DNA of 45,548 bases. Origin: Scenedesmus sp. PABB004. Its lineage: Eukaryota. This document shows positions 3,001-41,232 of the stretch, piece after piece (the first letter of the stretch is position 1; each line of letters opens with the position of its first letter). The translations under genes were made by a program, and so were the position numbers. Location of the stretch: contig JABVCE010000003.1 in assembly GCA_014905635.1 (NCBI GenBank), positions 1,798,001-1,843,548 on the forward strand, given 5' to 3'. The notes under the pieces are model-generated. The model ran no database searches, was not told where the DNA came from, and saw only the letters and a program-made list of their open reading frames with translations.

Positions 3001-3186
3001 GCGGACGTGAAGTTGGCGTGCAGCGCCGCCGCGTCGGCGTCCTGCCCCGCCAGCACCTGCATCGCCGGCCAGAACGCGCCCAGGCTGCTCACCCAGGGGC
3101 GCAGCAGGCGCCCGCTCTCCATGTGCACGTCCAGCAGGAACACGGGCGACGACGCGCCCGGCGCGCCCGGCAGCTGCGCGCGCGGG

Positions 3187-3218
<32 letters not shown>

Positions 3219-7298: not shown

Positions 7299-8409
7299 AT
7301 GCAGTCGGCGCGCGCGCCGCTCGCGCAATCGCCGCCGTCCAATCGCGGGCTCTGCGCCGTGATCGTCAAGCTCGGCGGCTCCGCCATCACGGACAAGGGG
7401 CGCCTGGAGACACTGCGCGGCGACACGCTCGCGGCGGCCGCTGCCCACGTCGCGGCGCTGCATCGGCACCTGCAGCAGGTGACTGGGGCAGCGGGCCCGC
7501 CCGGCGCGTCACGTCGAGGGATAGGCCTGCCGTGGGGCACGCAGTGCGCTGCCGCAGCCCGCCGCAGCCCGCCGCAGCCCGCCGCAGCACGCAGTGCGCT
7601 GCCGCAGCCCGCCTGCAGGCCGCTGCGCCCGCCGCCGCTGCCGCCAGGCGCGCCGCGGCGGAGTGTGCGTGGTCCACGGCGCGGGGTCGTTCGGCCACTT
7701 CCAGGCCTCCGAATTCGGCATCGCGCGCGGCGGGAACGACCCGCAGAGCGCGGTCGCCGGCTTTGTGGCGACGCGGCGGTCCGTCGCGCGCCTGCACGCC
7801 GCGGTGCTCGACGCGCTCATCGACGCGGGCGTGCCCGCGGTGGGGCTGTCGCCGTGCGGCGTCTGGACCACCAACGACCGGCGCGTTGCGGACGCGGCGG
7901 CCGGCGTTGCGGCCGTGTCGGCCGTGCTCTGCGCGGGCATGGTTCCTGTGTTGCACGGCGACGCGGTGCTTGACGCGGTCCTCGGCGTCACGATCCTGTC
8001 CGGCGACACGCTGTTGCGAGAGCTCGCGCTCGCGCTGGCCCCGGAGCACGCCGCCTTCCTCACGCACGAGGCGGGCCTCTTCAACCGCCCGCCGCAGCAG
8101 CCCGGCGCGGCGCTGGTGCCGGCGGTGGAGGTCGCGCGCGACGGCAGCTGGCGGCTCCCAGCTGGCACTGGCGGCGGCGGCGGCGGCGGCGCGGCGGGCG
8201 TGGCGATGTCGACGGCGGCGCACGACGTCTCTGGCGGCATCGCCAAGAAGGTCGCTGAAGCCGCGGCCGTCGCCGCCGCGGGCTGCCCCGTCGTGATCGC
8301 CCAGGCCGGCTCGCCGTCGGGCGCGGCGGCGCTGCTGCACGGGCCGGCCGCGTTTGTCGGCGACGGCGCGCTGCGCGGAACGGTCATCGCCCTGGCGGCC
8401 GGGGCCTGA
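7299..8409 (+). CDS. IPK: Isopentenyl phosphate kinase (amino-acid kinase family), 2 exons
   Basis: IVKLGGSAITDK, VVHGAGSFGHFQA, VPVLHGDAVLD, ILSGDTLL, HDVSGGIAKKV and terminal GTVI match IPK motifs. Confidence 0.88.
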
Positions 8410-12393: not shown

Positions 12394-16539
<4,146 letters not shown>

Positions 16540-19403: not shown

Positions 19404-20897
19404 ATGGCGATCCGGCTGAGGTGGGGCGGGCCTGGATGCAGCGGACAGCAGCAGCAACCTCCGGCCCCCCGGCCCGGGCGCCCCTGATCGCCCCGCCCCC
19501 GGCTGTCCGTGCGCCGCAGGGAGCTCATCCGGGCGGTGCGGGCCTGCAAGACGGCCGCGGAGGAGCGGGATGTGATCGCAAAGGAGTCGGCGGCGCTGCG
19601 CGAGGCGTTCCGCGAGCAGGACGCGCGCTACCGGCACCGCAACATCGCCAAGCTCATGTACATCCACATGCTGGGCTACCCCACGCACTTCGGGCAGATG
19701 GAGACGCTCAAGCTCATCGCGGCAAACGGCTTCCCCGAGAAGGTGGGGTCGCCGCGCTGTGTGCAGCGGCGGCGGCGGCGGCCGGCGGCCGCGCCGCTCG
19801 CCGGCCGCTCACCGGCCGCCGCGCCCTCTGCCGCCGTGCCCCCTCTGCCGTGCCCCCTGCCCCCTGCCGCCCCGCGCGCGCACGCGCAGCGCATCGGGTA
19901 CCTCGGGCTCATGCTGCTGCTGGACGAGCGCCAGGAGGTGCTCATGCTCGTCACCAACTCGCTCAAGACAGACCTGGGCAACGAGAAGAACCAGTTCATT
20001 GTCGGCCTCGCACTCGCAGCGCTCGGCAACATCTGCTCAGCAGGCGCGCGCCCGCGCCGCGCGGCGCCGCGCGGGGCGGGGCGCACACACGCCAGCGCGC
20101 GCCGGAGTGGCGGCGCGGCGCGTGGCGCGGCGGGCGGGCGACGGCGCGCGCCGCGCCGCGCCGCGCGCGGCGCAGAGATGGCGCGCGACCTCGCGCCCGA
20201 CGTGGAGCGCCTGCTGGACCGCAACCCCAACCCCTACATCCGCAAGAAGGCCGCCCTCTGCGCGATCCGGTGTGCCCGCGGCGCCGGCCGGGCGGTGCCT
20301 GCCCGCGCCCGCTGCGCGCTGCCGCCGCTGACCTGGCGCCGCTGGCGTTGGGGGCTGTCAGGGTTCTGAAGAAGAACCCTGAGCTGCTGGAGGAGTTCCT
20401 GGACAAGGCGGCGGACCTGCTGCACGACAAGAACCAGGGCGTCGCGCTGAGCGGCGTGACGCTCATGCTGGCCATGGCGCAGCTCGACCCCCTCGCGGTC
20501 GAGCGCTACCGGTCGCACGTGCCCACGCTCTGCAAGATGCTGCGCGGCCTGCTGCAGGCGAGGCCCCGCGCGCGCGAGGGCGGCCGCCGTGCACCGCACG
20601 CGCGCCGCGGGCCGCACCGCAGGCCGACACGCGCGCTGCACCGCGCCACGCCGCGCGCCGCCGTCCGCCGCCGCAGGGCGGCTTCTCGCCCGAGTACGAC
20701 GTCGGCGGCATCACCAACCCCTTCCTGCAGGTCAAGATCCTGCAGCTGCTGCGCGTGCTGGGTGAGCGCGCCGCGCGAGGAGGGGGACCCCGTGAGGGGC
20801 GGCGGGCGAGCGCCCCTGCCGCCGCCGGGCCGCCTTTCGCGCCCCCGCTCACCGCGCCCCCGCTCACCGCACGGCCCGCTCACCGCGCGGCCCGTGC

Positions 20898-20928
<31 letters not shown>

Positions 20929-22420
20929 GCACCCCCCCCCCCCCAGGGCGCGGCCACGCGGAGGCGAGCGACGCGATGACCGACATCCTGGCCCAGGTGG
21001 CCGCCAACGTGGAGGGCGGGCGCAACGCGGGCAACGCGGTGCTGTACGAGGCGGTGGGCACGATCATGGGCATCGACACCCTCGGCGGGCTGCGCGTGAT
21101 GGCGGTCAACATACTCGGCCGCTTCCTCGCCGCGCGCGACAACAACATGCGCTACGTCGCGCTGCACACGCTCGCGCGCGTCGTCGGCGTCGACACGCAG
21201 GCGGTGCAGCGCCACCGTGGCACAATCGTGGAGTGCGTGAAGGACGCCGACGTCAGCATCCGCCGCCGCGCGCTGGAGCTCGTGTACGCGCTCGTCAACG
21301 AGGCAAACATACGGTGAGGGACACCAGGCAGCGGCGCACCACGCCGCCGCGGCGCACGCACGGCCGCAGGGGTGGCGCCCCCGCGCTGACACGCCCCCTC
21401 CTGCCCCCTCCTGCCGCACCACCGCGCGCGCAGCACGCTGACGCGCGAGCTGCTGGACTACCTGGCCGTGTGCGACGGCGAGTTCAAGCCCGACCTGACC
21501 GCCAAGATCGCGACGCTGGTGCAGCGCTACGCGCCGGACAAGCGCTGGCACGTGGACAGCATGCTGGCGGTGCTCGTGACCGCGGGCGCGCACGTGAAGG
21601 AGGAGGTCGTGCGCGCGCTGCTGGTGCTCATCGCCAACGCGGAGGACCTGCACGCCTACGCTGTGCGCCGCCTCTACGCGACCGCGGCGCAGCAGGGGCC
21701 CGCCGCGGAGCCCGCGCTGCTCACCGCGGCGGTGTGGTGCGTCGGCGAGTTTGGCGAGATGCTGCCCACGGGTGCGGCGCACTGCGGCGAGCGAGCGCGC
21801 GCGCCGGGCGACGCGAGCGGGCGCACGCAGCGCGCGCGCGCCCCGCCGCCGCTGCCGCTGCCGCCGACACGCGGCGCGCCGCCGCGGCGCCGCGGGCGGG
21901 CAGGGCGCGGCGGGCCGCTGCTGGACGGCGAGCCGCCGCTGGCGGTGAGCGAGGCGGACATCAGCGCCATGCTGGAGGAGCTGCTGCGCCGGCCCAAGCT
22001 GCCCGTGTCAGTGCGCCAGGTCGTGCTCACGGCGGCCATGAAGCTCACCGCGCGCCTGCCCAGCCAGGTGCGCGCCGCTGTCGCGGCGGCGGGGCCGAGC
22101 GCCGCGCGCGCCGGGCGCCGCCGCCACCAGCGGCGGCGGTGCGGGGCGCTCGAGCCCCGCGGTCCCCGGGCCCACCGGCGCGCGCCCGCTGCCGCCGGCA
22201 GGTGCCGCGGCTGCGCGCTCTGGTGGAGGCGCACGCCGGCAGCACCGCGCTGGAGGTGCAGTCGCGCAGCGTCGAGTACGGGCGCCTGCTGGCGGGGCAC
22301 GGCGGCATCACGGCGGGGCTGCTGGAGCGCATGCCGCCCCTGGACGAGGCAGAGTACAGCCGCAACCTCGCGAGCGGCGCGGTGCTCTCGCCGCCGCAGT
22401 CGGGCGGCGGCGCCGCGCCG

Positions 22421-22455
<35 letters not shown>

Positions 22456-23316
22456 GGCGGCGGCGGCGGCGGCGGCGGCGCGGGCGGGCGGCGGGCGGGG
22501 CGCCCGCCAGCGACGACCTGGTCGACCTGCTCGGCGGCCTCGACGCGGCGGCGGCCACCGTGGGCCGCGTCTCGGGCGGCGGCGGCGGCGCGCTGGACGG
22601 CCTGGACGGCCTCGGCGGCGCGGCGCCGGGCGGCGCTGCAGCGGCAGCGGCGGGCGGCGGGCTGGACGACCTGCTGGGCCCGGGCCCCGCGGCGCCGCCC
22701 CTCGCGGGTGGCGGCGACATCCTGAGCATGCTCGGGGGCCGGGCACCAGCCCCGCACCAGCAGCCCCGGCCGCGGCGGCGCACGACCCGCTCGCCGGCCT
22801 GCTGGGCGGCCCCGCGCCGGCCGCGCCGGCCGCGCCGGCCGCGCCGGCGCAGGCGACCATGCCCGTGTTCAACCAGGGCGGCGTGAGCGTGACGTTTGCG
22901 GTCGCGGGCGCGGGCCCCGGCGGCGCGGCCATCACGTCCACCGCCACCAACGCGGGCCTCGACGACGTGGCCGACTTCAGCCTGCAGGCGCGCGCGCGCC
23001 GCGGGCGCCGGCCGGCGGGGGGCGCGGCGCTGGCGCAGCGCGGCGGCACGCACGCGGCGCGGCGCGGCCGTGACGCGCCCTGCCCCGCGTCGCCACCTCG
23101 CAGGCGGCGGTCCCCAAGTCGTGTACGCTGCGCCTGGAGCCCGCGTCGGGCACAGCGCTGCCGGCGCTGGGCGGCGCGGTGACGCAGCGGCTGCACGTGT
23201 CCAACGCCATGCACGGCCAGAAGCCGCTGGCGATGCGGCTGCGCGTCAACTTCAGCCGCGGCGGCGTGCCGCAGCAGCACCAGGTGGAGGTCACCGGCTT
23301 CCCGCCAGGGCTGTGA
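19404..23316 (+). CDS. AP1G: AP-1 complex subunit gamma (gamma-adaptin), multi-exon
   Basis: [90 protein letters not shown], and ear domain FSLQ|AAVPKS...EVTGFPPGL*. Confidence 0.97.
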
Positions 23317-23403
23317 CGCGGGGCGGCGACGTGGCGGCCTTGCACGAGGCGCTGAGCGCGTGCGGATGCGTTAACGAGCCTGTGCTTGCGTCTGCCAGGC
23401 GGG

Positions 23404-24087
23404 CGCCTGCCGCACGCAGCGCGCGCGGGTGTGCGCCGCCGCGCCGCACCGCCCCGCGCCGGCGCGCCCCGGCGGCGCCGCAGCGTGCGCGCCAGAGGCG
23501 CTCGCGTCGCTGCGGAGCTCGGGCCGTCGGGAGCGTCAGTCGGGGAGCGCAGGCGCTCCGTGACAGCAGGTGCCGGCTGGCGGGAAGTGCGCCAGACCGT
23601 CGGTGCCGCCACGCGCAGTGCTGCAACGCGCTCCATACGCCGCATATATCACGATCAGCTCACTCCAGGACTTTACGGCCGGCCAGCGTGCGCGTGTCGC
23701 ACGAGCCATTTCGCGCTCCCGCGCCTGGCGCTCCGCGGCTCGCAACGGCAGCTCGATCGCGCCTTGAGAGCTGTGTGTGACTGCGGGGGACGCACGGCCA
23801 GCTCTCAACTCGCGTGCGCGGCGGGCCTCCACCGAGCCACGCCCATTCTCAGCTTGGCCCACCGCCATGCACGCCGTCCCGGCCGCGCCAAGCGGTCGCG
23901 AAGGGAGCTAGAGCCATGAGCATGTCGCGGGTGGCGGCTGCCGTGGTCCTGCTGCTGGCCTGCGCCGCACCAGGGTGGGTGCTGCCGCTGTCACGCCCGG
24001 CCAACAGCTGGCCCGGCGGCGGGCGGTGCGGGCCTGCGCGCGCAGCAGCCCCGCGCCCCTGAGTGCGTGCCTCGCCACCTTGACTCC
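23404..24087 (+). repeat. 684-bp direct duplication, copy 1 (promoter, 5'UTR, signal-peptide exon and part of intron 1)
   Basis: Matches 25686-26369 at offset 2282. By eye only two mismatches (23991/26273 and 24027/26309). Confidence 0.95.
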
Positions 24088-25122
24088 CTGGCGACACGCT
24101 GACGCACCCGGCTTGCCTCCGCGCGCAGGCACCCCGGCGCCCTGCCTGCGCATGGCGGCAGCCGGCGGCGACTGGCCGCAGATGCGCCGTCGCGGCCGGG
24201 CATCTCTGGCCCGGTTGCGAAGCCAAAGCAGCCAGCCAAGCAGCAGCAGGCAGCCGTCAAGCTCAAGCTAGAGCAGGCGCCGGTGACCGCCGATGTCAGC
24301 GCAGGCGACATGGACTGGATTGCCGCCATGTCAGCGCCGACCGCTGTCGTCACGTGGCGTGCGAGCCAGGAGCCGGCCCAGCCAGACGGCGGCCCTGCAC
24401 TGGCCGCCGTGACGCTGGACGGCCGTCAGAGCCGCGCGCCCAGGGGCAGGCACGTCGTGGGCTGGGCCTGGACGCTGGAGGGCGGCCCCGCCGGCCAGCA
24501 GCAGCGCCTCATGCGCGAGGGCCCCGTGGCCAGCCTGAGCGGCCTGCCGCCGGGCAGCTACACGGCGCGGCTGGTGGTGCAAGACGACGCCGGCGGCGAG
24601 GGCGAAGACTCGCTGCGCATATCGCTCGGCGACGCGGCCGCAGCAGCGGCCCAGCCAGCGCCGCAGCCGCGCGCGCCGCCCCCGGCCGGCCCGGCGCCGC
24701 AGGCGCAGCCAACGCAGTCGATGCAGGTCGTGGTGCCGCCGGCGCGCCCGCAGCTGCAGCAGGCGCTGGTGATGGTGCCGCCGGCGCAGCGCAGGGACCA
24801 GCCGATGGTGCTGGTCCCGCTGGCGACGCAGCGCGACGCGCGCTCGCCGTCGCCGGCCGCGCAGCCGCCGGCGGCCCAGCCCCCTGCTGGGCAGCAGGCG
24901 GCGCCCGTCGCAGCGCCGCGGCAGCGCAGGGATGACGAGCAGGCCAATGCCAGCCAAGGCGGCACGGCTGCCTCGCAGTGGCCGGGGCCACCGGCCAGTG
25001 ACGCGGCAGCGGCGCCCTGGCCCGTGCAACCCCGGCCATCGTCGTCGCCACCGGCGCCCTCACCACAGGCATCACCGGCGTCGCCTCCGCTGCCGCCATC
25101 ACCGTCGCCCTCGCCGCCGCCG

Positions 25123-25192
<70 letters not shown>

Positions 25193-25319
25193 GCCCAGCG
25201 CAGGGCACCGCCGGGCCTGGCGCAAGGTGAGTGTCTGCAGCTGACAGCGGCGCTGGCCGACGGGCGACGTGACTGCGTGCCGCTCACGCCACCGCTGCCC
25301 TGCTTGTCTGCAACACGGC

Positions 25320-25351
<32 letters not shown>

Positions 25352-25610
25352 CAGTCCGAGCCCCAGTCCGAGCCCGAGGTGAGGCCCTGGCCAGCCAGCC
25401 AGCGCTTGGCGGTTGGCTGCGCGGCTGCGTGCGCGGCCTCTCACTGCCGCGCCCGCCGTGCGCAGCCCGTCGCCCAGCCCCAGTCCCTCGCCCAGCCCAC
25501 CGCCCTCGCCCTCGCCGGCGCCCTCCAAGGACTATGACGACTACGCGCCCGACCCGCCGCTGCCGTCGCCGCCGGCGGGCGCGCCCGCGACGGGCAGCGC
25601 GATCGACTGA
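23916..25610 (+). CDS. Secreted PKD/Ig-like domain plus proline-rich (SPn, (SP)n) protein, paralog 1; 4 exons
   Basis: Signal peptide MSMSRVAAAVVLLLACAAPG. PKD-like APTAVV..VTLDGRQS..GWAWTL..LPPGSYTARLVVQDDAG. Poly-Pro and SP exons, with phases consistent. Confidence 0.75.
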
Positions 25611-25685
25611 CGAGCGTCCGACAGCACAGCTGCTATGTGTGTGGCTGAATGCCGGTAACAAGCATGGCCCTGCGCCGCTGCCTGT

Positions 25686-26369
25686 CGCCTGCCGCACGCA
25701 GCGCGCGCGGGTGTGCGCCGCCGCGCCGCACCGCCCCGCGCCGGCGCGCCCCGGCGGCGCCGCAGCGTGCGCGCCAGAGGCGCTCGCGTCGCTGCGGAGC
25801 TCGGGCCGTCGGGAGCGTCAGTCGGGGAGCGCAGGCGCTCCGTGACAGCAGGTGCCGGCTGGCGGGAAGTGCGCCAGACCGTCGGTGCCGCCACGCGCAG
25901 TGCTGCAACGCGCTCCATACGCCGCATATATCACGATCAGCTCACTCCAGGACTTTACGGCCGGCCAGCGTGCGCGTGTCGCACGAGCCATTTCGCGCTC
26001 CCGCGCCTGGCGCTCCGCGGCTCGCAACGGCAGCTCGATCGCGCCTTGAGAGCTGTGTGTGACTGCGGGGGACGCACGGCCAGCTCTCAACTCGCGTGCG
26101 CGGCGGGCCTCCACCGAGCCACGCCCATTCTCAGCTTGGCCCACCGCCATGCACGCCGTCCCGGCCGCGCCAAGCGGTCGCGAAGGGAGCTAGAGCCATG
26201 AGCATGTCGCGGGTGGCGGCTGCCGTGGTCCTGCTGCTGGCCTGCGCCGCACCAGGGTGGGTGCTGCCGCTGCCACGCCCGGCCAACAGCTGGCCCGGCG
26301 GCGGGCGGCGCGGGCCTGCGCGCGCAGCAGCCCCGCGCCCCTGAGTGCGTGCCTCGCCACCTTGACTCC
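25686..26369 (+). repeat. 684-bp direct duplication, copy 2
   Basis: Near-identical to 23404-24087. Confidence 0.95.
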
Positions 26370-27401
26370 TCGCTGCACCGCAGGGCCACGCCAGCCGCCG
26401 CTGGCGACGGGGTGCGCAGGCTGGGTGCGCGGCCGCTGTCAGCCCTGGCCGCGCAGCCGACCGCGCTGCAGTTCAAGCTCAGGGGCGTGTCAGTCGCGCG
26501 GCGCCTGCATGCAGACAGCAGTGCAGCAGGCAGCGCTGGCGCCAAGGCCGGCGGCCATGCCGCCGCGCACGCTCCGCGCAAGCCGGCCGCAGCCGCAGCC
26601 AGCGTGGCCTCTCCCTCGCCGGCGCCGCAGCAGGCCGCGGCCGCGGTGGACTGGATTGCGGCGCTGTCCGAGTCCACTGCGGTGGTGAGCTCGCCCCGGC
26701 GGGGTCAGGTCTTTCCCGCGCAGACGGCGGCGGGCGGCGTCGTGCTGCTCGACGGCAGCGCCTCCAAGGCGGAGCGCGGCGGCTCCATCACCGCGCACAC
26801 GTGGGTCGTGACGCGCGTCGACGGCGCCGGCGCGCGCGTGGTGCACTCGTTCACGGGGCCGCGCGTGGAGGTCGCGCTGCCGCCCGGCACCTACTCCGCC
26901 GCGCTCACGGTCACCAGCCGCGCCGCGCCCAACGACGTCGCGGTGGCGAGCAAGGGCACCGACACGGTTCCGGCCTTCGTGGTCGCGCCGTACGCGCCGC
27001 CGCCGGCCGAGGAGGCCCCCGCGCCAGCCGACGCGGCGCCAGGGGACGCGGCAGCCAGCGAGCAGCTGGCGCCAGAGCAGCCGCCTGGCGGCGCGGGGGC
27101 GGGCGCCGCGGAGCCCGGGGGGCTGAGCGACGCCACACAGCCAGCGCCGGGCGCGGCGGGCGAAGGCGGCCCGCTGGCAGGCGACCCAGCTGCGGGCGAC
27201 GCAGCACAGAGCGGCGTGGCGCTCGGGGCTGGTGGGCTGGACGGCGCAGCCGACACAGCAGGCGACGGCTTCACCCGAGGCCCGATGCCGCCGGGCTTCA
27301 CGAGGCCCATTGTGAGGGACGACGTCAGCGGCGACGGTGGCAGCGGCGCCGGCAGCAGCGCCGGCGGCGCTGGCGGGGCAGTGGCGCCTGGCAGCGGCAG
27401 C

Positions 27402-27434
<33 letters not shown>

Positions 27435-29037
27435 TCGGCCGCCTACCCGGTGGACGTGGCGGCGTCCGACCTCTTCCAGCCCTGGCTGACCCAGCTCACG
27501 CCCAGCCCGGCGCCGGCCGACGCAGCAGGGCCCTATGTGCAGCCGCCGTTGTCGCAGCCTGGCGCAGAGGCGCCGGCGCCGGCCGTGGGCGAGCTGCCGG
27601 GCTGGAGCCGGCCGTTCACGCGGCCCGCGGCGTCCCCAGCAGCAGCGCCGCAGCCGGCGGCGGATCAGCAGCCCTGGACGCCGCCCGGCCCGCAGCCGGC
27701 GCCGGTGGGGGCGCCCGACCCGGCACCGGCACCGGCGGCAGCGCCGGCGGCGAGCGAGCCAGCGCTGGGGCCTGGTCCTGCCTGGCCGCTGTCGCCGCCG
27801 CCCCCACCGCCCCAGTCAGCGGCCGCGCCAGGGCCATTGCCGACGTCGCCACCGCCGTGGGTGGCACCGCCAGTCGCGCCGCAGCCCGCCCCGGCACCGC
27901 TGCCGTCGCCGCCGCCGGCGCCAGTCCCCACGCCGCCGGCCGTGGGGACTACGCTCGACGAGGACTACTGCAACCCCAGCCACGTGCGGCACGGCGGGGC
28001 GCAGCGGGGCGTCGCAGCGCGCCGGCGGCCGTCTCTGGCGCACACGCACGCACGAGCGCGCGCGCACGCGCGCGCCGACCTGTCCGCTCTCTCGCGCAGG
28101 ACTATGACATGTCGGTGCTGGTTGACTGGCAGGACCTCAAGATGTGCTGCGACGACGCCGCGCGCAAGGGCGTGCGCGACAGCGAGTGCACCAGCCTGCC
28201 GCCCGCGCCGACGCCGGCGTCCGCCGCGGCCGCGCCTGTGCCGGCGCCCGCTGCCCCCGCTCCGGCACCGGCTGCCCCCGCTCCGGCGCCTGCCGCACCT
28301 GCGCCGGCGCCTGCCGCACCTGCGCCGGCGCCTGTGCCTGCTCCAGCGCCCGTGCCGGCGCCCGCGCCGGCGGCGCCCGCGCCGGCGCCCGTGCCTCCGC
28401 CCCTTCCCCCGGCGACGCCGACGAGCACCACCGACAACACGTACTGCGACCCCGACCACGTGCGCGCCGCCTGGGGGGGGGGGACGGGTTGGGCCGGTGC
28501 CGCGGCAGCCTGAGCCCTGAGCCCTGAGCCCAGAGCCCTGAGCCCTGAGCCCTGAGCCCTGAGCCCTGAGCCCTGAGCCCTGAGCCCTGAGCCCTGAGCC
28601 CTGAGCCCTGAGCCCTGAGCCCTGAGCCCCCCCCCCGCACGCAGGACTACGACCTGTCCGTGCTGATTGACTGGGATGACATGAAGCTCTGCTGCGACGC
28701 TGCGCGCGAGCGGGCAATCACAGACAGCGATTGCGCCGCCATGCCGGCGCGGCCCGCCGAGCCGCCGGCTCGGCCCGCCGAGGGCCCGGCCACGGTGGAC
28801 GAGGACTACTGGTGAGCGTCGCGCCGCGGGCGGGGAGCGAGGGGGGCGGCCGGGCGCGCGCCGCCGCCGTGCGCGCGTCGCCTGCCCAAGGGCCGCGCGC
28901 CGCCCGACCCGCGCAGCGTCGGCGACGACTACGACTTTGCGAACAAGGCCGACCGCGTGTACTGGGACGACTGCTGCGCCGACGCCAAGAAGGCCAACAA
29001 GCTCGACTCGGAGTGCTCCCGGCCGCAGTGGACCTAG
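26198..29037 (+). CDS. Secreted PKD-like, Pro/Ala-rich protein with three Cys-rich modules, paralog 2; 5 exons
   Basis: Same signal exon as paralog 1. VLLDGSASKAE..HTWVV..LPPGTYSAALTVTS. Modules YCNPSH|DYDMSVLVDWQDLKMCCDDAARKGVRDSEC, YCDPDH|DYDLSVLIDWDDMKLCCDAARERAITDSDC and YC|VGDDYDFANKADRVYWDDCCADAKKANKLDSEC. TAG at 29035-29037. Confidence 0.8.
28509..28629. repeat. (CCCTGAG)n heptamer array, about 17 units, intronic
   Basis: Read directly; one CCCAGAG variant. Confidence 0.95.
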
Positions 29038-29247
29038 TCGCGCCGGGTCGGCCGGTCGTCGCTGAAACCTGGTCCTCTCGTCCGCTCCCGGGGAACCGCC
29101 GGATGACCCCGGTTGGGCGCACAGGACAGGCCAGCTCCGAAGCGCCTCCGCAGCCGCCACACGCCGCTCTGCAAGCAGCAGCAGCAGCTGCGCGCGGGCG
29201 GCACTCACCGGCGCGCGCCGCCATGTGCCTCTGACCGCGCGCGCGCC

Positions 29248-32200
29248 ATGGCGGCGCTGGAAGCGCTGTGGATCCTGGCCCTGCTTCTTGCGGGCCAGAG
29301 CACGGCGCAGCCGGCGCGGTGCAGGTGCGCGCCACGCCTATCGCCGCCGTCGCGCGCCCGCTGCTCGCGGCGCGTCGGGCGCGGTCGTGCAGGATGGGGA
29401 AGGATCTGGCATCCTGCAGCCGACGCGCGCGGCCCGGCCGGCGCGGCAGCGCGCGCGGAGGTGGCCGCGTTGGTCCACTGATTTCGCCGGCGCCCGCCAC
29501 CGCCCGCCGCCCGCCCGGCCGCGCCGCAGGGGCCTCGGTTGCGGCTCACCAGCTTCCTCGGTGCCGCAGGCGGAGCAGCAGGCGCATCAGGAGCCGCAGC
29601 GACGCGCCGCGGCCGCCGCAGCCGGAGCAGCAGCAGCTGCGCGCGGCGGCGCCGGTGGCGCTGGCGCGCCGCGAGCGCTGGACCCGGGCAGCTCCCGCGC
29701 CCGCCCGGGTGGCCAGGAAACGCAGCCGCAGGCGCAGGCGCAGCGGCGGCGGCACCTGCTGTCCAGCAGCAAGGCGGCCGCGCCGGCCCGGGCGAAGGCG
29801 GCGGCGGCCAACGCCCGGCCGCCGCGGGCGCCCGCCCGCGTGTCAGAGGCGGCGGCGGCGGTGGACCAGATCGCGCTCTTCCTGGAGGCGCCCACGGCGA
29901 TCATCTCGTCGCCCGCCGGCGGCGCCGCGCTGCCGGCCAGCTCGGCGTCGGGCGCGGTCGTGCGCTTCGACGGGCGCCGCAGCGACCCCGAGCGCGGCAT
30001 GCGGCTCACGCGCTACGACTGGGCGCTCGCGCGCCGCCCGCCCGGCGGCGCGCCGCTCCCCGCGCTGCCCGCCGAGGTGGTGGCCGAGGCGGAGCTGGCC
30101 CCGGGCAAGTACAGCGTGAGCCTCACCGTCACGTCCAGCAAGCGCGTGGGCGGCCGGCCCAGCAGGGACACCGCGACGCTGGAGTTTGAGGTGGCCGAGT
30201 GGACGGGGCAGCCGGACGCCGGGTCGGCGGGCGGGGCCAAGGCCGGGGCAGCTCGCGGCGAGGCCGGGGCGCCAGCGCGGGGCAAGCGAGCTGCCGGCAG
30301 CGCGAGCAGCAGCGGCGCCGCCAGCGCCAGCAGCGGCGGCGGCAGCGGCGGCGGCGCTGGCAGCGGCAGTGGCGCCGGCAGCGGTGCGGGGAGCGGTGCG
30401 GGCAGCGGCGCTGGCAGCAGCAAGCCGGCATCTCCCTCGGGCGCGGTTGGTGCGGCCAAGCCCGGCGCGCCCAGCAGCAGAACCACTGGCGCCCCTCGCC
30501 GCAGCAGCAGTGGGGGCAAGCCCGGCAGCAGCAGCAAGGGCAGCCCCGGTTCAACTGGTGCCAGCAGCAGTGGTGGTGGCAGCAGCGGCAGCGGCGGCAG
30601 CAGCAGCGGCGCCGGCAGCGTGGGCAGCAGCGGCGCCGGCAGCAGCGTCGCCGGCAGCGGCGGCAGCGGCAGCAGCGGGGGCAGTGGCGGCAGCGGCGGC
30701 GCCAGCAGTGGTGCCGGCAGCAGCAGCGGCAGCAGCAGCAGCTCAGGTGCAGGAGAGCTGCCGAGCACGCGCAGCAGCGCTTCGGTCCCGGCCAGCTCCT
30801 CCAGCAGCGGCGGCGGCGCAGCAGCCACGGACGATAGCAAGAAGGTGCGGCGGCCCCGCAGCCCGGCGCGTGCCTTCCCGCCCCCAAAGGTCCTCGCCTG
30901 CGGCGCCCGCTAGCGTCACCCACCACGCGCCGCTCGCGCAGGCGGCGGCGGCAACGGCGCCCAATCAGGAGAGCGTGAGCACACCCGCGCCCCGCAAGGA
31001 GGAGTCCGGGGCGCCCCAGCCGACGCCCCCGCCCAGCCCGCCGGTGCGCAGCAGTGGGCCTGACGCTGCTGGGAAGTGCTCGTGCTCCGTGCCAGCACTG
31101 CTCACACGCGCCGCCTGACCCGCGCGCTCGTGCAGGGCCCTGCGACTCCACCAGCGGACGCGCCGGGGCCCGCGCCTCCGGCGTCCACGCCTGTGCCGAC
31201 GCCAGGGCCGAGCCCTCCCGTGCCGGTGAGCGACCTGGGGCCGCCTGCGCGCGCCGCTGCCGCCCTCCCTGCCCAAGGCGACCGCTCGACTTGACACACC
31301 GCGCGCCGGCGCCACCCGCAGGCACCCACGCCTGCGCCCGCGCCGCAGCCGCAGCCGCAGCCGGTGAGCTCCCTGCTCGGCGCGCATGTGCACGTGCTGC
31401 CGGGTGCGCTGTGCGCCTGGCGCCTCACCGGGCTGCCGCGTCGCGCCCGCGCAGGTGCAGGCGCCCGGCGCAGGGACGCCGCCGTCCACCCCCCCTCCCA
31501 CGCCGTCGTCGCCGCCCACGGTGAGAGAGACCTGCCATGCGCGCGAGCGGGGCTGCCAGGGTGGCGGGCCGCCGCCCCTCCACGCCGCTGGCTGGCCGCC
31601 GGGCCGCCTGCCGCTGCACGCCAGGCCCCGACGCCCGCGGCCGAGCCCGCGCCCTCTCCTGCGCCGGGGCCTGCCGCTGCGCCGCCGTCGCCGGCGCCTG
31701 TGCCCGCCCCGACGCTGGCGCCGGCGCCGTCGCCGGCGCCCGGCGCGGCGCCGCCGCCGGCGGCCTCGCCGCCGCCGCCTGCCGCGCCGCCGCCGACCGC
31801 GCCCGTGCCGCCGGCGGGGCCCACGGTTGACGAGCTGTACTGCAACCCGGACAAGGACTATGACGTGCGCGGCAACGCGGACGACTGGGACGCGATGAAG
31901 GACTGCTGCGACTCGGCGCGCCAGGACAGCGTGACCGACTCGGACTGCGCCGCCTTTGCCGCCACGCCGCGCCCCGCGAGCGAGGTGAAGCCGCGCGACG
32001 ACTACACCAACGCGCCCAACGTCAACGACGACTATGTGAGAGCGCCGCGCGGCCGCGCCGGCACGCCGCGCGCTCGCGCGCCGCACGGCTGCCCGGCGGC
32101 GCGGCGCGCGCGCCGAGCGCTGCCTCGGCCCCGCCCCGGTGCTGCTGCGCGCGCAGTGCGACCCGGGCGACTACGAGCTCGGCACCTCGATGGGCAAGGA

Positions 32201-32276
32201 GATGTGGCGGGCGTGCTGCAAGGACGCGGCCATGGCCAACGTCAAGGACAAGGACTGCGACGCAGTCAAGGTCTGA
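29248..32276 (+). CDS. Secreted PKD-like, Gly/Ser-rich and Pro-rich protein with two Cys-rich modules, paralog 3; multi-exon
   Basis: Signal peptide MAALEALWILALLLAGQSTA. APTAII..VRFDGRRSDPE..RYDWAL..LAPGKYSVSLTVTS. Modules YCNPDKDYDVRGNADDWDAMKDCCDSARQDSVTDSDC and Y|CDPGDYELGTSMGKEMWRACCKDAAMANVKDKDC. TGA at 32274-32276. Confidence 0.78.
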
Positions 32277-33927
32277 CGCCGCGGCGGCGGCGTCTCGCGG
32301 CAGCGGCTGCCCCCTGGCGGCGCTGCAGCACTGCGCGTGGCAGGAGGGGCAGGCAGGCAGACAGAGGGTAGCGCAGCGCAGGCTGAGCACAGCAAGCCTA
32401 TGTTCCACGACCAGCACTGCACAGGGCGCCCGCAGGCAGCTGCGCGCGCAGCGCACCCAGCCATCTATTCCTTGGCATCCTGCACACTGGGGGCGGTCGG
32501 GCTTGATGGGCGGACGCGGGCGGACACGGGCGGACGCGTGTGTGACGACTGGCCCAGTCGTCCGGCGCAGCACATGTGACCTGGCCGAGAGCCCCGGCCG
32601 ACCGCCAGCGATCTAAACCGGCGCGCACGCCCGCTGCTGCTCAGCCGCCCGCACAGCCCGCGGCAGCGCGCAGCGCGCAGGCCGGGCGAGAAGAGAGAAG
32701 TTACACTGTGTGCTGGCGCACATTGCCCGACAGTCGCCGCCGAGCTCCACTGCCTCGGCACTCGAGCGCCGAGGCGCGCGGCCTGGAGGTGGTGACAGCA
32801 GCGGCGGCAGGCGGCGTCAGCGTAGCGGGAGCGCAGGCGGGGGGCGTGCGATGGTGTGTGTGTGTGTGGGGGGGGGGGGGGGGAGTGTCGCGCGCGCCCC
32901 GCGGCCGCGGGCCAGCGCGTGGCCTCGCGGCGGGCGCGGGGCGCACGCAGGTGATTGTGGCACCACAGACGTCCAACTCGGATCGCGATTGCGGCGCGGC
33001 CAAGCCCCTTGCGGTGCGGAACCAGGACAGCGCGCGGGCACGCGCTGCCGCGGCGGCGGCGCACCTGCGCGACGCGCGGCGCGCCGGCGGCCTGCCGCCT
33101 CCTGGTGCGGCGGGGCGGCGGGGCGGCGGCGGCGGCGGGGCGGCAGCGGCGGGTTAGAGCAGGCGCGCCGGGCTGCTCAAGCGAGCCGCGGTGCTCGGGC
33201 ATGTCGGCAGCGTGTAGATCCGGGCGAGCACGGGGGGCGCTCGCGCAGGTGCTGAGCTGCCGGCGATGTGGCACCCAAGCGAAGCCCAGGCGCCCGTGGG
33301 GAGTGGGGCAACCGGGCATTAGAGGATGCGTGCGCAGCGCTGCCGCGCGAGCCGCTGCCGGCGGCCCGGCAGCAGCAGCGGCGGCTGGCGGCGGCTGGCG
33401 GCGGCTGGCGGCGGCTGGCGCGGCTGGCGGCGGCTGCCCGCCGCCCAGGAGGAGGCTGCGGCGCTGCGGGCATCACGCCGGGCCCTCACCTCACTGCCGG
33501 GGAGCATGCCGCCAGGCGCGCAGGCGCCGGCCGCCGGGAGGGGATCGCTGCCCCGCTGCCGCGAAAGGGGGTGGCGCCGGTGCTGGTTGGAGCGCGTGAG
33601 GATGCCCTGCGTCCCCCTGCACCGCCCGGTGCGGGCGGGACCAGCGGGCGGCCGGCTATCAGCGCGTGGGGCTAGACCGCGAAAATGCCGACGACCGGGT
33701 GCACGGCAGCGCGCGCGGGGCAGCTCACGTCGCAGCTGCCAGCACTACCATCACCAGCGGCCGTGGCACCAGCAGCAGCCCCCGCCACCAGCAGCGCGCT
33801 GCAGCGGCAGCGGCGGCGGCGGGTGCACCCGCCGGAGCGCCTCCGCTTGCTTGCTGGGGGTCGGCTCGCAGCAGGCACCGTCAGGCAGGCTCACAGCGGT
33901 CAGGCACACAGCAGCGGCGTCGCCGGC

Positions 33928-34314
33928 ATGGAGGCGCTGGAGCTGGCGGCGATCGTGGGCGCCGCGGTGCTGGCGCTCGTGCTGCTGCTGCGCCGCCGCG
34001 CGTCGTACCGCGCGCACGTCGCGGCGCTGGCGGCGCCGCGCAAGCCCAAGCGCGCGCTGGTGGTGGGCACCTGGACGCGCGCCGAGGTCGCGGCGCACGC
34101 GAGCGCGGACGACCTGTGGCTGGTCATCCGCGACGCGGGCAGCGGGGAGGCGCGCGTGTACGACGTGACCGACTACGTCGAGGAGCACCCGGGCGGCCTG
34201 AGCATCATGTACAACGCCGGCGGCGACGCGACCGACGGCTTCCACGGCCCCCAGCACCCGCCCACGGTGCACGAGCTCATCAAGGAGTACTGCATCGGCA
34301 CGCTCGCAGACTGA
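33928..34314 (+). CDS. Cytochrome b5-like protein with N-terminal membrane anchor, single exon
   Basis: Hydrophobic N-terminus, EVAAH..DLWLVI, VYDVTDYVEEHPGG, AGGDATDGFHGPQH and YCIGTL. Confidence 0.93.
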   Translation: MEALELAAIVGAAVLALVLLLRRRASYRAHVAALAAPRKPKRALVVGTWTRAEVAAHASADDLWLVIRDAGSGEARVYDVTDYVEEHPGGLSIMYNAGGDATDGFHGPQHPPTVHELIKEYCIGTLAD

Positions 34315-34423
34315 GCCCCGCCCCGCACGCACCAGCCCGGCGGCCGGGCGCGCGGCGGCGGCGGTCGGTAACGGGGCGGTTACCGGACGGCCCCTGCCTC
34401 GGGCGCGCGCCCTCACAGCCCCC

Positions 34424-35478
34424 TCACAGCGCGGGCAGCAGCCGCGACAGCAGCGCGTACGTGCCGCCCGCGACGAGCAGCGCGCCGCTCGCGGGCGTGA
34501 TCCAGCCGGAGCTCCGGCGCAGGTCCAGCACCGACCGCGCCGCGCCCTGCGGCACGCGGTGCGCGGCACGCGGTGCGCAGCGCGAGGTGTGGTGCCGGGC
34601 GGGCCGCTCGCGCGGCGCGGCTGAGTGCGCGGCGCGCTCGGCGGCGCCGCGCCCGCACCGTGGCCGTCGCGACCACGAGCAGCGGCGTGACGTAGCCGCA
34701 GCTGTACCCCAGCAGCAGCGCGCCGCCGGCCAGCGGGTCGCGGCTGCTGCTGACAAACGCGAGCAGCGTGGCCAGCACCGGCGTGCTGCACGGCGACGCC
34801 GCGAGCGCAAACACGCCGCCCGCCAGGAACGCCATGAGCGGCGGCGGCAGCCGCGCGGCGCGCACGTCGACGTCCAGCGACGGCAGCGGCAGCGTCACGA
34901 CCTGGTGCGTGTGCGTGTGTGTGGTGTGGCTGGGTGCTGGGGGCACCGGGCGCCAGCCTGCTGGGCGCGCGGCGCCGCGCTCCGCCACTGGCGGGTGTGC
35001 ATGTCCCGGCAGCCCGCGCACCTCGAGCAGGTTGAGCCCCATGGCGATCGCCACCAGCGCCACCAGCGAGGGCAGCCCGCTGCCGACCTGGCCGTACGCG
35101 CGGCCCAGCAGGCTGCTGGCCACCCCCAGCGCCGACAGGCTGCTCGCGAGGCCCAGGGCAAAGCACAGTGCCTGCACCCGCAGCCTGCCGCCGCCGCCGC
35201 CGGCCCCGCCGCTGCTGCGCGCTGTGGGCAGGGTGGCCGTGCTTTGTGCCGGCGCGCTGCTGCCGGCCGCGCCGCCGCCCGCGCCAGCATCTCCCGCACC
35301 GAGCGGCGCGCCGGGCGGCGCCGCTGGCTGCGCGCCGGGCGGCGCCGCTGGCTGCGCGTAGCCGCCGATGTATCCGATGGTCAGCGGCAGCACCGACAGC
35401 GTGCACGGCGACACGCTGGTCAGCAGGCCAGCCAGCACGCACACGCCAAACGTCGCAGGGGAGACGTCTGCGCCCGCA

Positions 35479-35525
<47 letters not shown>

Positions 35526-35896
35526 TGACGCCGGCCGGCCCGGCCCCCACGGCCGCGGCGCGCCTGCGGCGCCCGCCCGACCTGTGAGCGCGCCCTGCAC
35601 CAGCTGGTCCGCGGCCTGGCCCACGCTGTAGAGCCCGCCGTCGAGGGTGGACGCCACCGCCGTGAGCGTGCAGAACTGCAGCGGCGCACGTGCGTGAGGC
35701 GTGCAGGCGCTCGCGCGCAGCAGCCGCCCCCGCAGCGCAGCCCTCTCACGTCCAGCCCGACTGCCCGGCACCGTGCCCGGCGGCCGCCGCGCGGCGCGGT
35801 CCGCCACGCTCGCGCGCCGCTGCAGCTCCCGCGTGTGGCTCCGGCAGCGGCGGCGGGCGCTCGCGCGACGGCGGCGGTGGACGCCATGCTGGCCAT
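34424..35896 (-). CDS. CCDA: Plastid cytochrome c biogenesis thiol-disulfide transporter CcdA, multi-exon
   Basis: AGLLTSVSPCTLSVLPLTIGYIGG and FALAASPCSTPVLATLL contain the two conserved PC cysteines; transit-peptide-like N-terminus. Confidence 0.92.
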
Positions 35897-36106
35897 GCTG
35901 AGCGGGTAGCTCGGAGTTCGTGGCGCGGGAGTGGTGGGCCGGTGGGCTGCGCCGGCGGAGCAGCGGCCGCGCAGCGGGGGCGTCAACGCGGGCGCAGACC
36001 CCGACGCGCAACGGCTCCTCCGAGCCGGACTCCGTGGCACACCCGCACGCCTGCACAGACCTCCAGGCCGCCTGGGCGCTCACGTTGGGTGTTGGTGCTC
36101 GCAGCA

Positions 36107-38972
36107 ATGAGGGCCATCACCAACGCTCTGAAGGGCGTGAGCTATGCCAACCCGCAGCTCGGGGAGAGCCTGTACGAGCTCTGCCGGCGCGCGACGTCCA
36201 GGCACATCGCGGGGCCCGACGAGATCATCAACCAGCAGGTGCGCCGCCCCACCGGCGCCTGATCCCGGGCCCCCAAAACCTCCCGGCGGGCATGCGCGGT
36301 GCTGCGCGCGCGGGCGGGCCCGCGCCGCGCAGTGCGGCAGCTGCCGCTGCTGCGGCAGCGGCGCCGCCTCCGAGCACGCCGAGCGCCGCGCAGGTGGTCT
36401 ACATGATCAACTCTGAGATGCACACGCCCTACTCGGCCAAGGTGCGGGCAGGCTGGCGCGCCTCCGCTGCGCCGGGCGCGCGCGGGCGCCCACCACCACG
36501 CTGCTGCCGCGTGTGCCGCGTGCCCGCGCGCAGGACGCGGTGACGTGCCTCAGGCGCCGGCTGCAGATGGACCACCCGCAGAAGCAGTACCTGGCCATCA
36601 TCCTCACCAGCAAGGCGCGGCGGCGGCGCAGCAGCGGAGCGCCGCAGCGCGGGCGCGCAGCACCCACCGAGCGCGGCCTCCCGAGCGCCCTCTGTGGTCG
36701 ACCCCCCTCGCCCCGCCCTCCCCCGCGCAGGTGCTGCAGGAGTGCCACGCCGCCATCGGCATCTACCAGGGCGAGCTGCTCCAGGAGGTCGCCTACATCC
36801 TCCGCACCGTGCGCAGCAGCAGCCCCGCCGCGGCGCGCACGCGGCAGGTGGCCATGGACACGCTGCGGCACTTTGGCAACGCTGGCGGCGACGCGTACCG
36901 CGTGGCGCGGCAGCAGGGCGGGCCGCCGCTGCAGCCGGGCATGGTCACGGGCATGGTGGCGCAGCAGCAGAGCAAGGACCCAGGTGCGGCCCGCGCGGGC
37001 GCCGACCCAGGCGCGCCGCGCGCTGCCGCGCTCACGCGCCGCGCCGCCGCCGCAGCGTCGGTCGCGGCGGAGCGCGCGTCGCTGCTGGACGAGATCAAGC
37101 GCATGGTCGAGGCGGCGGGCGCGAGCAGCGAGATCCTGAACGAGCTCGTGCTCAACAAGCAGACGGTGGGCCCGCACCCCCCGCGCCGCGCCACGCGCGC
37201 GGAGCCCGCCCCGTCGGGCGCAGCGCGCTCCGCGCGCGACGCGTTGCGACGCTCAGCGCTCCCGCCGCCCGCTGCGCCGCGCGCGCCCGCAGCCCGGCGG
37301 CGCGGCGGCGCCGGGCGACGAGTCTGTGGGGCTGCGCCGTGAGCTGATCGCGGACGTGAAGGAGCTGCGGGGGCGGTTTGACACGTTCATGGGCCCCCTG
37401 GCCGCGCTGACCGGCGCCGACGCGGAGGAGGCGATGAAGGCCGCCCTGGAGGCGGTGGACACGCTCGACAACGCGCTCGCACTCGACAAGGCGCGCCGCG
37501 GCGCACCACGCCCGGCCCGACCGCCCCGCACGCGCTGCCGCCAGCCCGCCCGCGCGCACGCCCGCACCCGCCCGCGCTGCCGCCAGCCCGCTGCAGCGCG
37601 GGCCGGCCGCAGACCCCGGCCGCGCGCCGCGCCGCAGGACGTCGACGCGGAGCTCAAGGACCTGCAGGCCAAGGGCCAGCTGCCGCCGCCCGACGCGGCG
37701 CCCGCGCCGCTCGCAGCCGGCGAGCAGGGCGCCGCGGCGGCGGGCAGCAGCGCCGCCGCGGCGGCGGGCAGCAGCGCGGCCGCGGGTGCCGCGCCCGGCG
37801 GCGTGGCGTCGCTGAACCTCATCGACCTCGACGACGACCCCCCGCCCCCGCCCGCGGCCGCGCCCGGGCCGAGCGGCGGCGGCCGCGACCCCTTTGCGCC
37901 GCAGGCGCCCGCGGCGGCCGACCCGTTTGCCGCGCCGGCGCCCGCGGCCGACCCGTTTGCGGCGGCGTCGGCGGCGCCTGCGGCCGCCGCGGCCGACCCG
38001 TTTGCCGCGGCGGCCGACCCCTTCGCGGCGCTCGCCGCGGCGCCGAGCGGCGGCGCGAGCGCCGAGCTTGCGGCCGCCGGGGCGGCGGCGGCGCCGGCGG
38101 CGGCGGGGCCGTATCCACAGGTGCCCGCGCCCGCGCCCGCGGCCGCCGACCCGTTTGCTGACGCCGCGCCCAACTGGGGCGGCGCGGCGGCCGGCGGCGC
38201 GGGCGCGGCGGCGCCGGCGCCGGCCGGCGTCCCGCCGGCGCCCGGCAGCGTGCCCAGCGGCGGCGGCGCGCTGAGCGGCGGCGGCGCGCCGAGCAGCAGC
38301 GGCTTCCCCAGCGGCGGCGGCGCGCCGGCGGGCGGGCCCTACGCGCCGCCGGGCTACGCGCCGGCGGGCTACATGCAAGCGCCGCCGCCGTACGGCTACA
38401 TGCAGGCGCCCGGCGGCGCGCCCGCGGCGTACGCGTCGCCCGGGGGCGCGCCCGCGTACGGCGTGCCGGGGCAGGCGTTCACGGGCGCGCCGTACCCCGG
38501 CGGCGCCTACGGCGCGCCGCCGCCGCCGCCCTACGGCGGCGCGCCGCCGCCGTCGCCCTACGGCGGTGGCGCGCCGCCGCCGTCGCCCTACGGCGGTGGC
38601 GCGCCGCCGCCGTACGGCGGCGCGCCCTACTACGCGCCGCACTACGCGCAGGCGGGCGTGCCGGGGCTGGCGCAGCCGCAGCTGCAGACCCCGCCGCCGC
38701 CGCAGCCGCAGCAGCCACAGCCGCTGCCGCAGCACGGGAGCGGCGGCGGCGCGTACGGCGCGGGCGCGTCCCCGCCGCCGAGGGACACCACGGCGCTGAG
38801 CCCGAGCAACCCCTTTGCCGCGCCCGCGCCCGCGCCACCGGGCGGCGGCGAGACGGCCAATCCCTTTGCGCCGGCGCTGGCGGGCCCTGCGGGGGCCGGC
38901 GGCAGCGTGGAGGCGGAGTGGAACACCTTCTTCAGCGACGCGCGGCCGGGCGCGGTGCCGGCGGGCAAGTAG
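36107..38972 (+). CDS. VHS + GAT domain protein (TOM1-like/TOL) with long DPF/NPF, Pro/Tyr-rich tail
   Basis: [47 protein letters not shown] (VHS). [29 protein letters not shown] (GAT-like). Confidence 0.8.
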
Positions 38973-40186: not shown

Positions 40187-41232
40187 GGGCCCGCCCCGCG
40201 CTGCTGCCGCGATGCTGCTGGTTGGCGTCCGCAGCGGCGGGGCGCGCCGCCGCTGCCGGACGGGCGGCGGCCGAGCTGCAACGCTCGGCAGGCGGGGGCG
40301 CGGTGCGCCGCCGCAGCCCCCGGGGTGTAACTCGCCGCCTCGCGCAGCGGCTCGCCGGGGGCGCGTCGTCGCGCGCGCACGCACGCGCGCCGGGGCGCGC
40401 GCCGCCCCGCATCGCCTGCAGGTCCCCGACCCCGCCGCTGGCGCGCGACGGCGAGGAGCTGCTGGCGGCGGCAGGCGGCAGCCGCTGGCGGCGGCTGGCG
40501 ACTGGCGGCTGGCGGCGGGGCAGGCGCAGCTGGGCGGCAGCAGCCGCAGCTTGGCGGCTGCGCGGGCGAAGCCGGCGGCGGCAGCGGCCGGCGGCGGCAG
40601 CGGCCGGCGGCTGCGCGCTAGCAGCAGCTGGCGCAGCGGCAGCAGCAGATGGCTGGGTGGCTCTGACCAGCTGCGGCGTGGGCCCGGGCGTTCGCGCATT
40701 TCGTGCTTCTGCGTCGTCGCGCGGCTGCCGTCGGCCGCGACGCAGCGTGGCGGCCGCACCCGCCGCGACGCAACAGCAGCAGCGCGCCCCGTCGGCCCGA
40801 GCATCCAGCGGTCGCGCCGCCGCCATGCCGCTGCCCCGCGTCGTCAGGCGGCGCTGCGCCCGCCGCCGGCAGCCGGCCGGCCGCCGCCGTTCGGCTGTCG
40901 GAACCGCCGCGCCGGCGCACGCCGCCTGGCGCGCCGCCCCTGGCGCCGCGCACACGCTCCCCGCGCCACGCGACCCCGGCGGCCTCCGCAGCGCCCGCCC
41001 AGGCGCAGCCTGCCGCCTCCGCCCGCGCCGGCGCCCGGCAGCCCGCCCTGCTGACCCGCAGCCCGTCGCACACGTGCGCCCGGGTCCCTCCCCAGCCGTG
41101 TGCGCGGCCGGCTGAGGGCCGCGGCGGCCTCTGCGCGCGCCGTTTGGGGCGCACGCATCGCCGGCGTCTGGCGCCCGCCCCGGCCTGCCCCGGCCCCGTG
41201 AGCGGCAGCGGCGCCGGCCGGCGGTGGGCAAC

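Follow-up and report, generated by a model that had tools for sequence, protein, structure and literature searches.

Two neighbouring genes in a stretch of 45,548 nucleotides from Scenedesmus sp. PABB004 (contig JABVCE010000003.1, positions 1,798,001 to 1,843,548, forward strand; the whole stretch is called the window below, and its first letter is position 1) encode five copies of an acidic module of about 40 residues with four Cys residues, which matches no known domain in the searches reported here. We conclude, at a probability of roughly 90%, that the module is a real, new and conserved extracellular domain. The five copies would represent an unannotated extracellular mini-domain in which a central helix holds an adjacent pair of Cys residues (CC), an N-terminal arm carries the first Cys and an invariant D-Y-D, and a C-terminal arm carries a conserved D-x-x-C; in chlorophycean green algae this domain would make up the C-terminus of rod-shaped glycoproteins that are secreted. 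For the carrier protein a cross-linking or anchoring role in the wall or matrix is suggested by analogy, and here we put the odds at about even.

A six-frame scan for W...CC-x12-C located five acidic modules of about 40 residues on the plus strand, in the places where an earlier sequence-only reading of this DNA had put them, and each of the five stretches is preceded by D-Y-[DE]. The copies are listed here with the class to which each belongs (defined below) and its score against a profile hidden Markov model (HMM) built from relatives outside the window only:

27954-27983 and 28100-28189, plus strand: module M1, class A, internal; split by a 116-nt intron (27984-28099); 47.7 bits.
28430-28459 and 28645-28734, plus strand: module M2, class A; split by a 185-nt intron (28460-28644); 55.0 bits.
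28795-28811 and 28917-29016, plus strand: module M3, class B, terminal; split by an intron (28812-28916); 54.9 bits.
31826-31948, plus strand: module M4, class A, the sole copy without an intron; 44.3 bits.
32021-32035 and 32157-32258, plus strand: module M5, class B', terminal; split by a 121-nt intron (32036-32156); 56.5 bits.

When the exons were joined by script, the spacing from the first Cys to the CC pair was 19, 19, 18, 20 and 18 residues in M1 to M5, and that from CC to the last Cys was 12 in all five copies, exactly as the sequence-only reading had given them. The copies share 33-58% pairwise identity and have net charges of -4 to -9. That four of the five are interrupted near the first Cys was likewise confirmed: the introns of all four split modules are of the GT-AG type, start with GTG, end with GCAG and join the halves in frame, and the intron of M3 falls within the codon of the first Cys. 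M3 is followed by a tail with a PQW motif, an end conserved in relatives, and by a stop codon at 29035-29037; M5 is followed by a tail and a stop at 32274-32276. Among the window copies only M3 and M5 have a Trp three residues before CC, the feature by which the last module of each gene had been set apart as a subtype. A GAGCCCT heptamer microsatellite (about 28503-28630) fills most of the intron that splits M2.

The modules fit into full gene models, whose main parts are the following:

26198..29037, plus strand: gene 1, exons 26198-26256, 26384-27983, 28100-28459, 28645-28811 and 28917-29037; 768 aa.
28190..28429, plus strand: Ala-Pro repeat linker between M1 and M2 (from translation).
29248..32276, plus strand: gene 2, exons 29248-29324, 29530-30844, 30942-31043, 31136-31225, 31322-31363, 31455-31520, 31625-32035 and 32157-32276; about 741 aa.
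30260..30800, plus strand: Gly/Ser/Ala-rich low-complexity region of gene 2 (from translation and a repeat family).

The script model of gene 1 has four GT-AG introns, a length divisible by 3 and no internal stop. Gene 2 was modelled by enumerating the GT-AG joins that keep the frame open, and its first intron and one acceptor are uncertain. The two genes have a common layout of hydrophobic N-terminus, PKD-like domain, long Gly/Ser/Ala and Pro/Ala regions and modules (three in gene 1, two in gene 2). Translation bore out the claim that the modules sit on Pro-rich linkers, and long Pro-rich repeats occur as Ala-Pro between M1 and M2, as Pro/Ala exons before M4, and as poly-Pro and (Ser-Pro)n in a third paralogue, gene 0, described below. 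The Pro-rich spacer of gene 2 (30845-31625) is spread over several very short exons (42-102 nt); the introns between them measure about 90-105 nt and have GTG donors. The Gly/Ser/Ala stretch between the PKD domain and these exons is built of 9- to 12-nt repeat units.

The G+C content is about 79% across the whole window and long open frames occur in all six frames, a composition that could encourage the view that the modules are non-coding or a chance recurrence in GC-rich DNA. This view is refuted by the family profile search described below, with its 28 outside relatives, and by the outside-only HMM. The latter was built from 26 outside relatives and scored against all six-frame open reading frames (ORFs) of the window: the five copies obtained 44.3-56.5 bits (E from 3e-13 down to 5e-17), no other window ORF exceeded 8.6 bits, and no sixth copy was found. 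In the last module exons of both genes, G+C at codon positions 1, 2 and 3 is 0.56, 0.44 and 0.97, a strong coding periodicity with a low second position, and the full gene models stay in frame. We regard the probability of an artefact as close to nil.

The family extends well beyond the window. A query profile made of the window module pieces and one relative, P0006, was searched against 1.84 billion protein representatives at E<=1e-3; it returned 29 proteins, 4 of them at E<=1e-10, and 28 were judged genuine, with the best outside relatives at 2.5e-16 to 4.6e-15. A word-index protein search had P0006 as its single relative (84 aa, with a gene-2-type end and an uninterrupted last module of the M5 type), and word-index searches with longer proteins found no relatives, which is weak evidence by the tool's own statement. 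The 28 genuine relatives carry 33 modules, and CC-x12-C is present in 32 of the 33 (one spurious row of 34 was excluded). In a 31-row alignment the Tyr, the CC pair and the last Cys are invariant and two Asp residues nearly so; conservation across the family is highest at the four Cys. A stricter pattern caught 32 outside module cores. The Tyr is invariant in these as well, an Asp precedes it in 30 of the 32, and 31 of the 32 cores are net acidic with a median charge of -4.5, some family members being near neutral (0 to -2). The conserved Asp residues flank the Tyr and precede the last Cys. The relatives come from Logan, JGI/IMG, ENA or EukProt, their names are absent or read 'hypothetical protein', and the sole named source organism among them is Hariotina reticulata, a chlorophycean of the order Sphaeropleales.

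Several candidates were rejected during this search. P0032 (E 2.8e-4), a bacterial protein with CarboxypepD_reg repeats, has no fourth Cys and was taken as a false positive; between its repeats it carries C-N-D-x-[YF]-D-[FY]-x-K...CC, which mimics the first two thirds of the module and was judged chance or convergence. P0039 (609 aa) is by eye a bacterial GlmS-type amidotransferase although it was clustered with P0010, and its presence in the 90% cluster of that 43-aa module protein is apparently a clustering error in the collection. Two metagenome-contig loci, L001 and L002, have only a 9-residue end pattern in common with the family and no module, and were set aside as chance; no related locus was matched in viral contigs.

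The modules fall into three classes. Class A is internal, with a Trp six residues before CC and a conserved PPRP-type motif after the module. Class B is terminal, with a Trp three residues before CC and a protein end of PQW-stop, to which gene 1 adds one extra residue; class B', also terminal and including gene 2, ends in D-K-D-C-D-x-[IV]-K-[FV]-stop. The terminal modules of many relatives close with PQW-stop or with the short [IV]-K-[FV]-stop, and the terminal subtype is thus conserved in other species with C-terminal ends of its own. Since the class B and class B' ends recur in relatives, the two window genes represent two lineages that are also present in other species, and the conserved ends are compatible with a fixed structural or binding role.

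The relatives also bear on the splicing of the window genes. Most of them are fragments that begin just past a splice site: many show unrelated residues, then Q, then D-Y-D, and others end in ...Y-C-D-P-x-H-V or ...E-D-Y-W. We infer that such ends arise where a prokaryote-style ORF call continues across a splice site (a ...CAG acceptor or a GT donor); since the sites affected correspond to those of M1, M2 and M3, the intron places look conserved in the family. Two Logan proteins, P0014 and P0036 (488 and 489 aa), have an uninterrupted module behind a full N-terminal part. P0035 (JGI, 48 aa), from the same 90% cluster, is identical to them from D-Y-D on and different upstream; the simplest reading is that of a spliced and an unspliced copy, Logan contigs not being known to be transcripts. 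Beyond PPRP, both forms close with the same three residues, a possible sign of read-through into a further intron. Introns that split the module exons, combined with prokaryote-style gene calls, conceal the domain in public data.

The sequence-only reading had called the module unrecognised, and this held in every search made. Pfam at E<=10 returned no family for the five window references (four in frame, the M3 reference out of frame) and at E<=1 none for six of seven module-only relatives; a match of P0007 to DcpS_C (12.6 bits against a cut-off of 24) is at chance level. The module family profile gave only two unusable rows (E 0.4 and 0.96) against all PDB sequences, ESM Atlas had no usable match for M4 or P0008, and no description of the module was found in the open-access full-text literature.

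AlphaFold2 predicts a compact mini-domain around one central helix that carries CC. The model of M4 (31-row alignment) has a mean pLDDT of 82.3 and a pTM of 0.55, with helices at residues 8-11 and 19-33; that of P0011, a terminal-type relative (24 rows), has a mean pLDDT of 87.4 and a pTM of 0.65; its helices cover residues 19-34 and, more briefly, 40-43, and its two arms are joined by a small bridge that links residues 3-4 with 37-38. Both models embed the CC pair in the main helix and place the first Cys in one arm and the last in the other. This layout fits two disulfides, each stapling one arm to the helix, which we consider the most likely arrangement. Of the small two-disulfide helical domain proposed from sequence alone, the helical part and its small size thus agree with the models, and the two disulfides are suggested by the model layout. 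Foldseek found no PDB match at E<=10 for either model, and the best hits of a wide VIA-align search (Z 3.6 and 3.7) are generic helical segments only, a result that shows neither a new nor a different fold.

At the other end of the proteins lies a PKD-like head, which is also present in the third paralogue:

23916..25610, plus strand: gene 0, third paralogue upstream of gene 1 (from Pfam and translation; ATG placed from the repeat offset).
26715..26921, plus strand: PKD-like (K319L-type) Ig domain of gene 1, Pfam PKD_4, 15.5 bits, E 0.019.
29900..30200 (approximate bounds), plus strand: PKD-like domain of gene 2, Pfam PKD_4, 20.8 bits, E 4e-4.

Gene 0 has the same signal-peptide exon as gene 1, a K319L-like PKD domain (Pfam K319L-like_PKD, 26.5 bits against a cut-off of 27), a poly-Pro and (Ser-Pro)n region and an acidic end rich in D-Y; it lacks the Cys module and does not match the module HMM. 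In the outside relative P0014 a signal-peptide-like start is followed by a K319L-like PKD domain (PF22352, 30 bits, where the cut-off is 27), a Pro/Ala spacer and a single module. An alignment of P0014 with the three window paralogues extends for about 100 residues; searched against the PDB, the joint profile of the four picks up KIAA0319L through its PKD domains (E 2.9e-10) and, more weakly, the PKD domains of clostridial collagenase. At the profile level the head thus belongs to the K319L-like PKD family, Ig-like domains of about 80 residues, and the window copies taken alone are borderline. The N-termini of genes 0, 1 and 2 and of P0014 are hydrophobic as judged by eye, and suggest secretion.

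Taken as a sequence, this architecture is that of a chimeric hydroxyproline-rich glycoprotein of chlorophycean walls or matrices, with a folded head, a Pro-rich spacer and small folded ends. The protein would be built of a signal peptide, the K319L-like PKD head, a spacer of Gly/Ser and Pro/Ala of the hydroxyproline-glycoprotein type, and one to three modules on Pro-rich linkers. At the distal end of the rod the modules would act as non-catalytic binding knobs, strongly acidic and clamped by disulfides; the PKD head would grip one partner while the knobs tie the opposite end to partners in the wall or matrix, possibly via Ca2+ bridges, so that the whole protein could have a cross-linking or anchoring function in the cell wall or the extracellular matrix. 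The binding knobs are proposed by analogy, from the conserved charge, the aromatic residues and the conserved C-terminal ends, and might as well be right as wrong.

The same charge could mean that the module is above all a unit for Ca2+ or another metal, an acidic, disulfide-braced loop that buffers or bridges wall cations, a role ascribed to the acidic Cys-rich domains found in wall proteins of diatoms. The negative charge of all window copies and of nearly all outside cores would suit it, as would the placing of the conserved Asp residues around the Tyr and before the last Cys; acidity alone is unspecific, though, the near-neutral members do not conform, and no known Ca2+-binding motif or family was matched in Pfam or by the PDB profile. 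We consider cation binding as the chief function unlikely, and it overlaps with the cross-linker or anchor proposed here and does not exclude it. If instead the aromatic residues are given most weight, with the Tyr invariant and the Trp conserved within each subtype, the module might be a small carbohydrate-binding unit that ties the glycoprotein to a wall polysaccharide. PKD domains often accompany glycan-active proteins, and the extracellular multidomain setting with such a domain would be in keeping with this. The module has no sequence or fold match to any carbohydrate-binding module (Pfam, Foldseek, VIA-align), so strongly acidic a surface would be unusual for the binding of acidic algal glycans, and in so small a fold the aromatics may merely form the core; glycan binding seems to us distinctly unlikely.

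A third alternative, raised by the sequence-only reading and disfavoured here, is that each module is set free from a precursor as a signalling peptide held together by disulfides, which Tyr sulfation at D-Y might activate. Known plant sulfated peptides are short and Cys-free, and the PSK, PSY, RGF and CIF precursors are themselves short, with a C-terminal Cys-free peptide that carries D-Y. The frequency of Asp before the Tyr in outside cores speaks for such a peptide, as do the DDY motifs of the linker that leads up to the final module in gene 2 and its relatives. Moreover, because TPST-class sulfotransferase families are reported across Viridiplantae, algae among them (PMC12506393), Tyr sulfation of the module is possible, and the Tyr is a candidate site. 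The modules, however, are C-terminal in secreted multidomain carriers (about 740-770 aa) that also have long spacers and a folded head, the module flanks are Pro-rich (PPRP-type) with no conserved basic or subtilase-type site, and the DY Tyr lies inside the confidently folded part of the models and not in a free tail. On these grounds signal-peptide release is the weakest of the cation, glycan and release alternatives and is most improbable; a plant-type sulfated peptide precursor in particular was rejected, since D-Y is present but the carriers are of that length and have four conserved Cys. A bolder idea joins several of these elements, namely that green algae of the Sphaeropleales type use the module as a recognition or adhesion device restricted to their lineage, in which D-Y is sulfated or coordinates Ca2+ to switch binding on, and which holds wall layers or colony cells together or acts after release as a disulfide-stabilised signal. 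On present sequences this is a long shot; if true, the module would open a new category of small interaction domains outside the cell, governed by a modification logic of their own.

Several points weigh against the extracellular cross-linker or anchor as we describe it. Because the predicted fold matches no known binding domain, the binding role is argued from architecture and charge. A two-copy complex prediction for M4 scored 0.02, with an uncertain partner fold and the family alignment not used, and speaks neither for nor against binding. The PKD regions of the window, at 15.5, 20.8 and 26.5 bits, are all under the Pfam cut-off of 27, the signal peptides were called by eye, and the probable disulfide pairing was drawn from the model layout. 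The splice joins of the window follow from sequence logic and from relatives with an uninterrupted module, so that the transcripts are themselves presumptive. Named model algae are absent among the sources of the relatives, which comprise one EukProt entry and otherwise contigs; the taxonomic breadth of the family and its link to the wall would accordingly be judged from few identified sources.

The wall or matrix of green algae consists mostly of glycoproteins whose globular ends set binding, and few such end domains have been defined beyond Chlamydomonas and Volvox. The module adds a compact, conserved domain with a precise signature that can be searched and expressed and that AlphaFold2 models confidently, from a group that is used in biotechnology and whose wall proteins are poorly known. 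If the binding role is true, it would offer a handle for wall assembly, flocculation or surface display in these algae.

Genes 0, 1 and 2 lie in a tandem array. A direct repeat of about 690 nt (23402-24095 and 25684-26377, 98-100% identity, offset 2282) supplies gene 0 and gene 1 with the same 5' flank, signal-peptide exon and start of intron 1, and points to a recent duplication or gene conversion within the array. A Pfam search of the window ORFs found intron-split eukaryotic genes, and the neighbours of the array are ordinary housekeeping genes, all of them intron-split:

2-5541, minus strand: GH47 mannosidase with PA domain.
7525-8406, strand not marked: amino-acid kinase.
12672-15616, minus strand: 5'-nucleotidase.
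19488-22883, strand not marked: adaptin.
33676-34311, strand not marked: cytochrome b5.
34416-36116, minus strand: DsbD/CcdA-type membrane protein.
41116-44010, strand not marked: NOG1.

Among known systems, the module resembles the LDL-receptor class A repeat in being about 40 residues long, acidic and probably disulfide-braced, in its D-x-S-D/E-type stretch before the last Cys and in its tandem copies on linkers. LDL-receptor class A repeats bind Ca2+ and have six Cys in a different pattern, whereas the module has four; Ldl_recept_a gave no Pfam match in the modules or relatives and no fold match by Foldseek or VIA-align. Diatom frustulins, which are Ca2+-binding wall glycoproteins, carry acidic Cys-rich (ACR) domains between Pro-rich stretches. 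The window genes share with them this arrangement of acidic Cys-rich modules between Pro-rich stretches of a putative algal wall glycoprotein, but belong to another lineage and have another Cys pattern, and the modules lack the signature hexapeptide of ACR domains. PAC domains exceed the four-Cys module in size and in their number of conserved Cys. PAC-domain proteins of the green lineage (Pro-rich, arabinogalactan, conserved Cys; Ole e 1-like; PMC7177597) resemble the window proteins in joining a Pro-rich or arabinogalactan region to a Cys domain thought to bind wall glycans. No Ole e 1 (Pollen_Ole_e_1) match was found by Pfam in the modules, the relatives or the gene ORFs.

The head invites a comparison with animal proteins, since the globular domain at the N-terminus, in P0014 as in the products of genes 0, 1 and 2, matches the KIAA0319/KIAA0319L family (PF22352). 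Animal proteins of the KIAA0319 type have a run of five PKD domains, a MANSC domain, a transmembrane segment and a Cys-rich stalk. The window proteins have a single PKD domain without MANSC domain, transmembrane segment or Cys-rich stalk, and their four-Cys module is without counterpart in KIAA0319L.

Closer to hand, pherophorins and agglutinins are head-shaft-head wall or matrix proteins of chlorophycean algae. The module is not a pherophorin domain, and Pfam at E<=1e-4 found no family, and so no pherophorin globular domain, in the long ORFs covering genes 1 and 2. In Chlamydomonas MST1, Ig-like domains are combined with a Cys-rich domain and with a poly-hydroxyproline helix that is glycosylated; contacts of the Cys-rich domain build the protein into an extracellular filament (PMC11015965). 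Where MST1 has a growth-factor-receptor-like domain with 26 disulfides, the module proteins have one to three copies of the acidic four-Cys module of about 40 residues. Like MST1, and like chimeric hydroxyproline-rich glycoproteins in general, they would be secreted and combine an Ig-type domain, a spacer rich in Pro that would be glycosylated and rod-shaped, and a globular part with Cys residues through which assembly would take place; the tandem array of the window genes adds to the likeness with the latter. We class the module as a previously undescribed domain family in a type of protein that is itself familiar.

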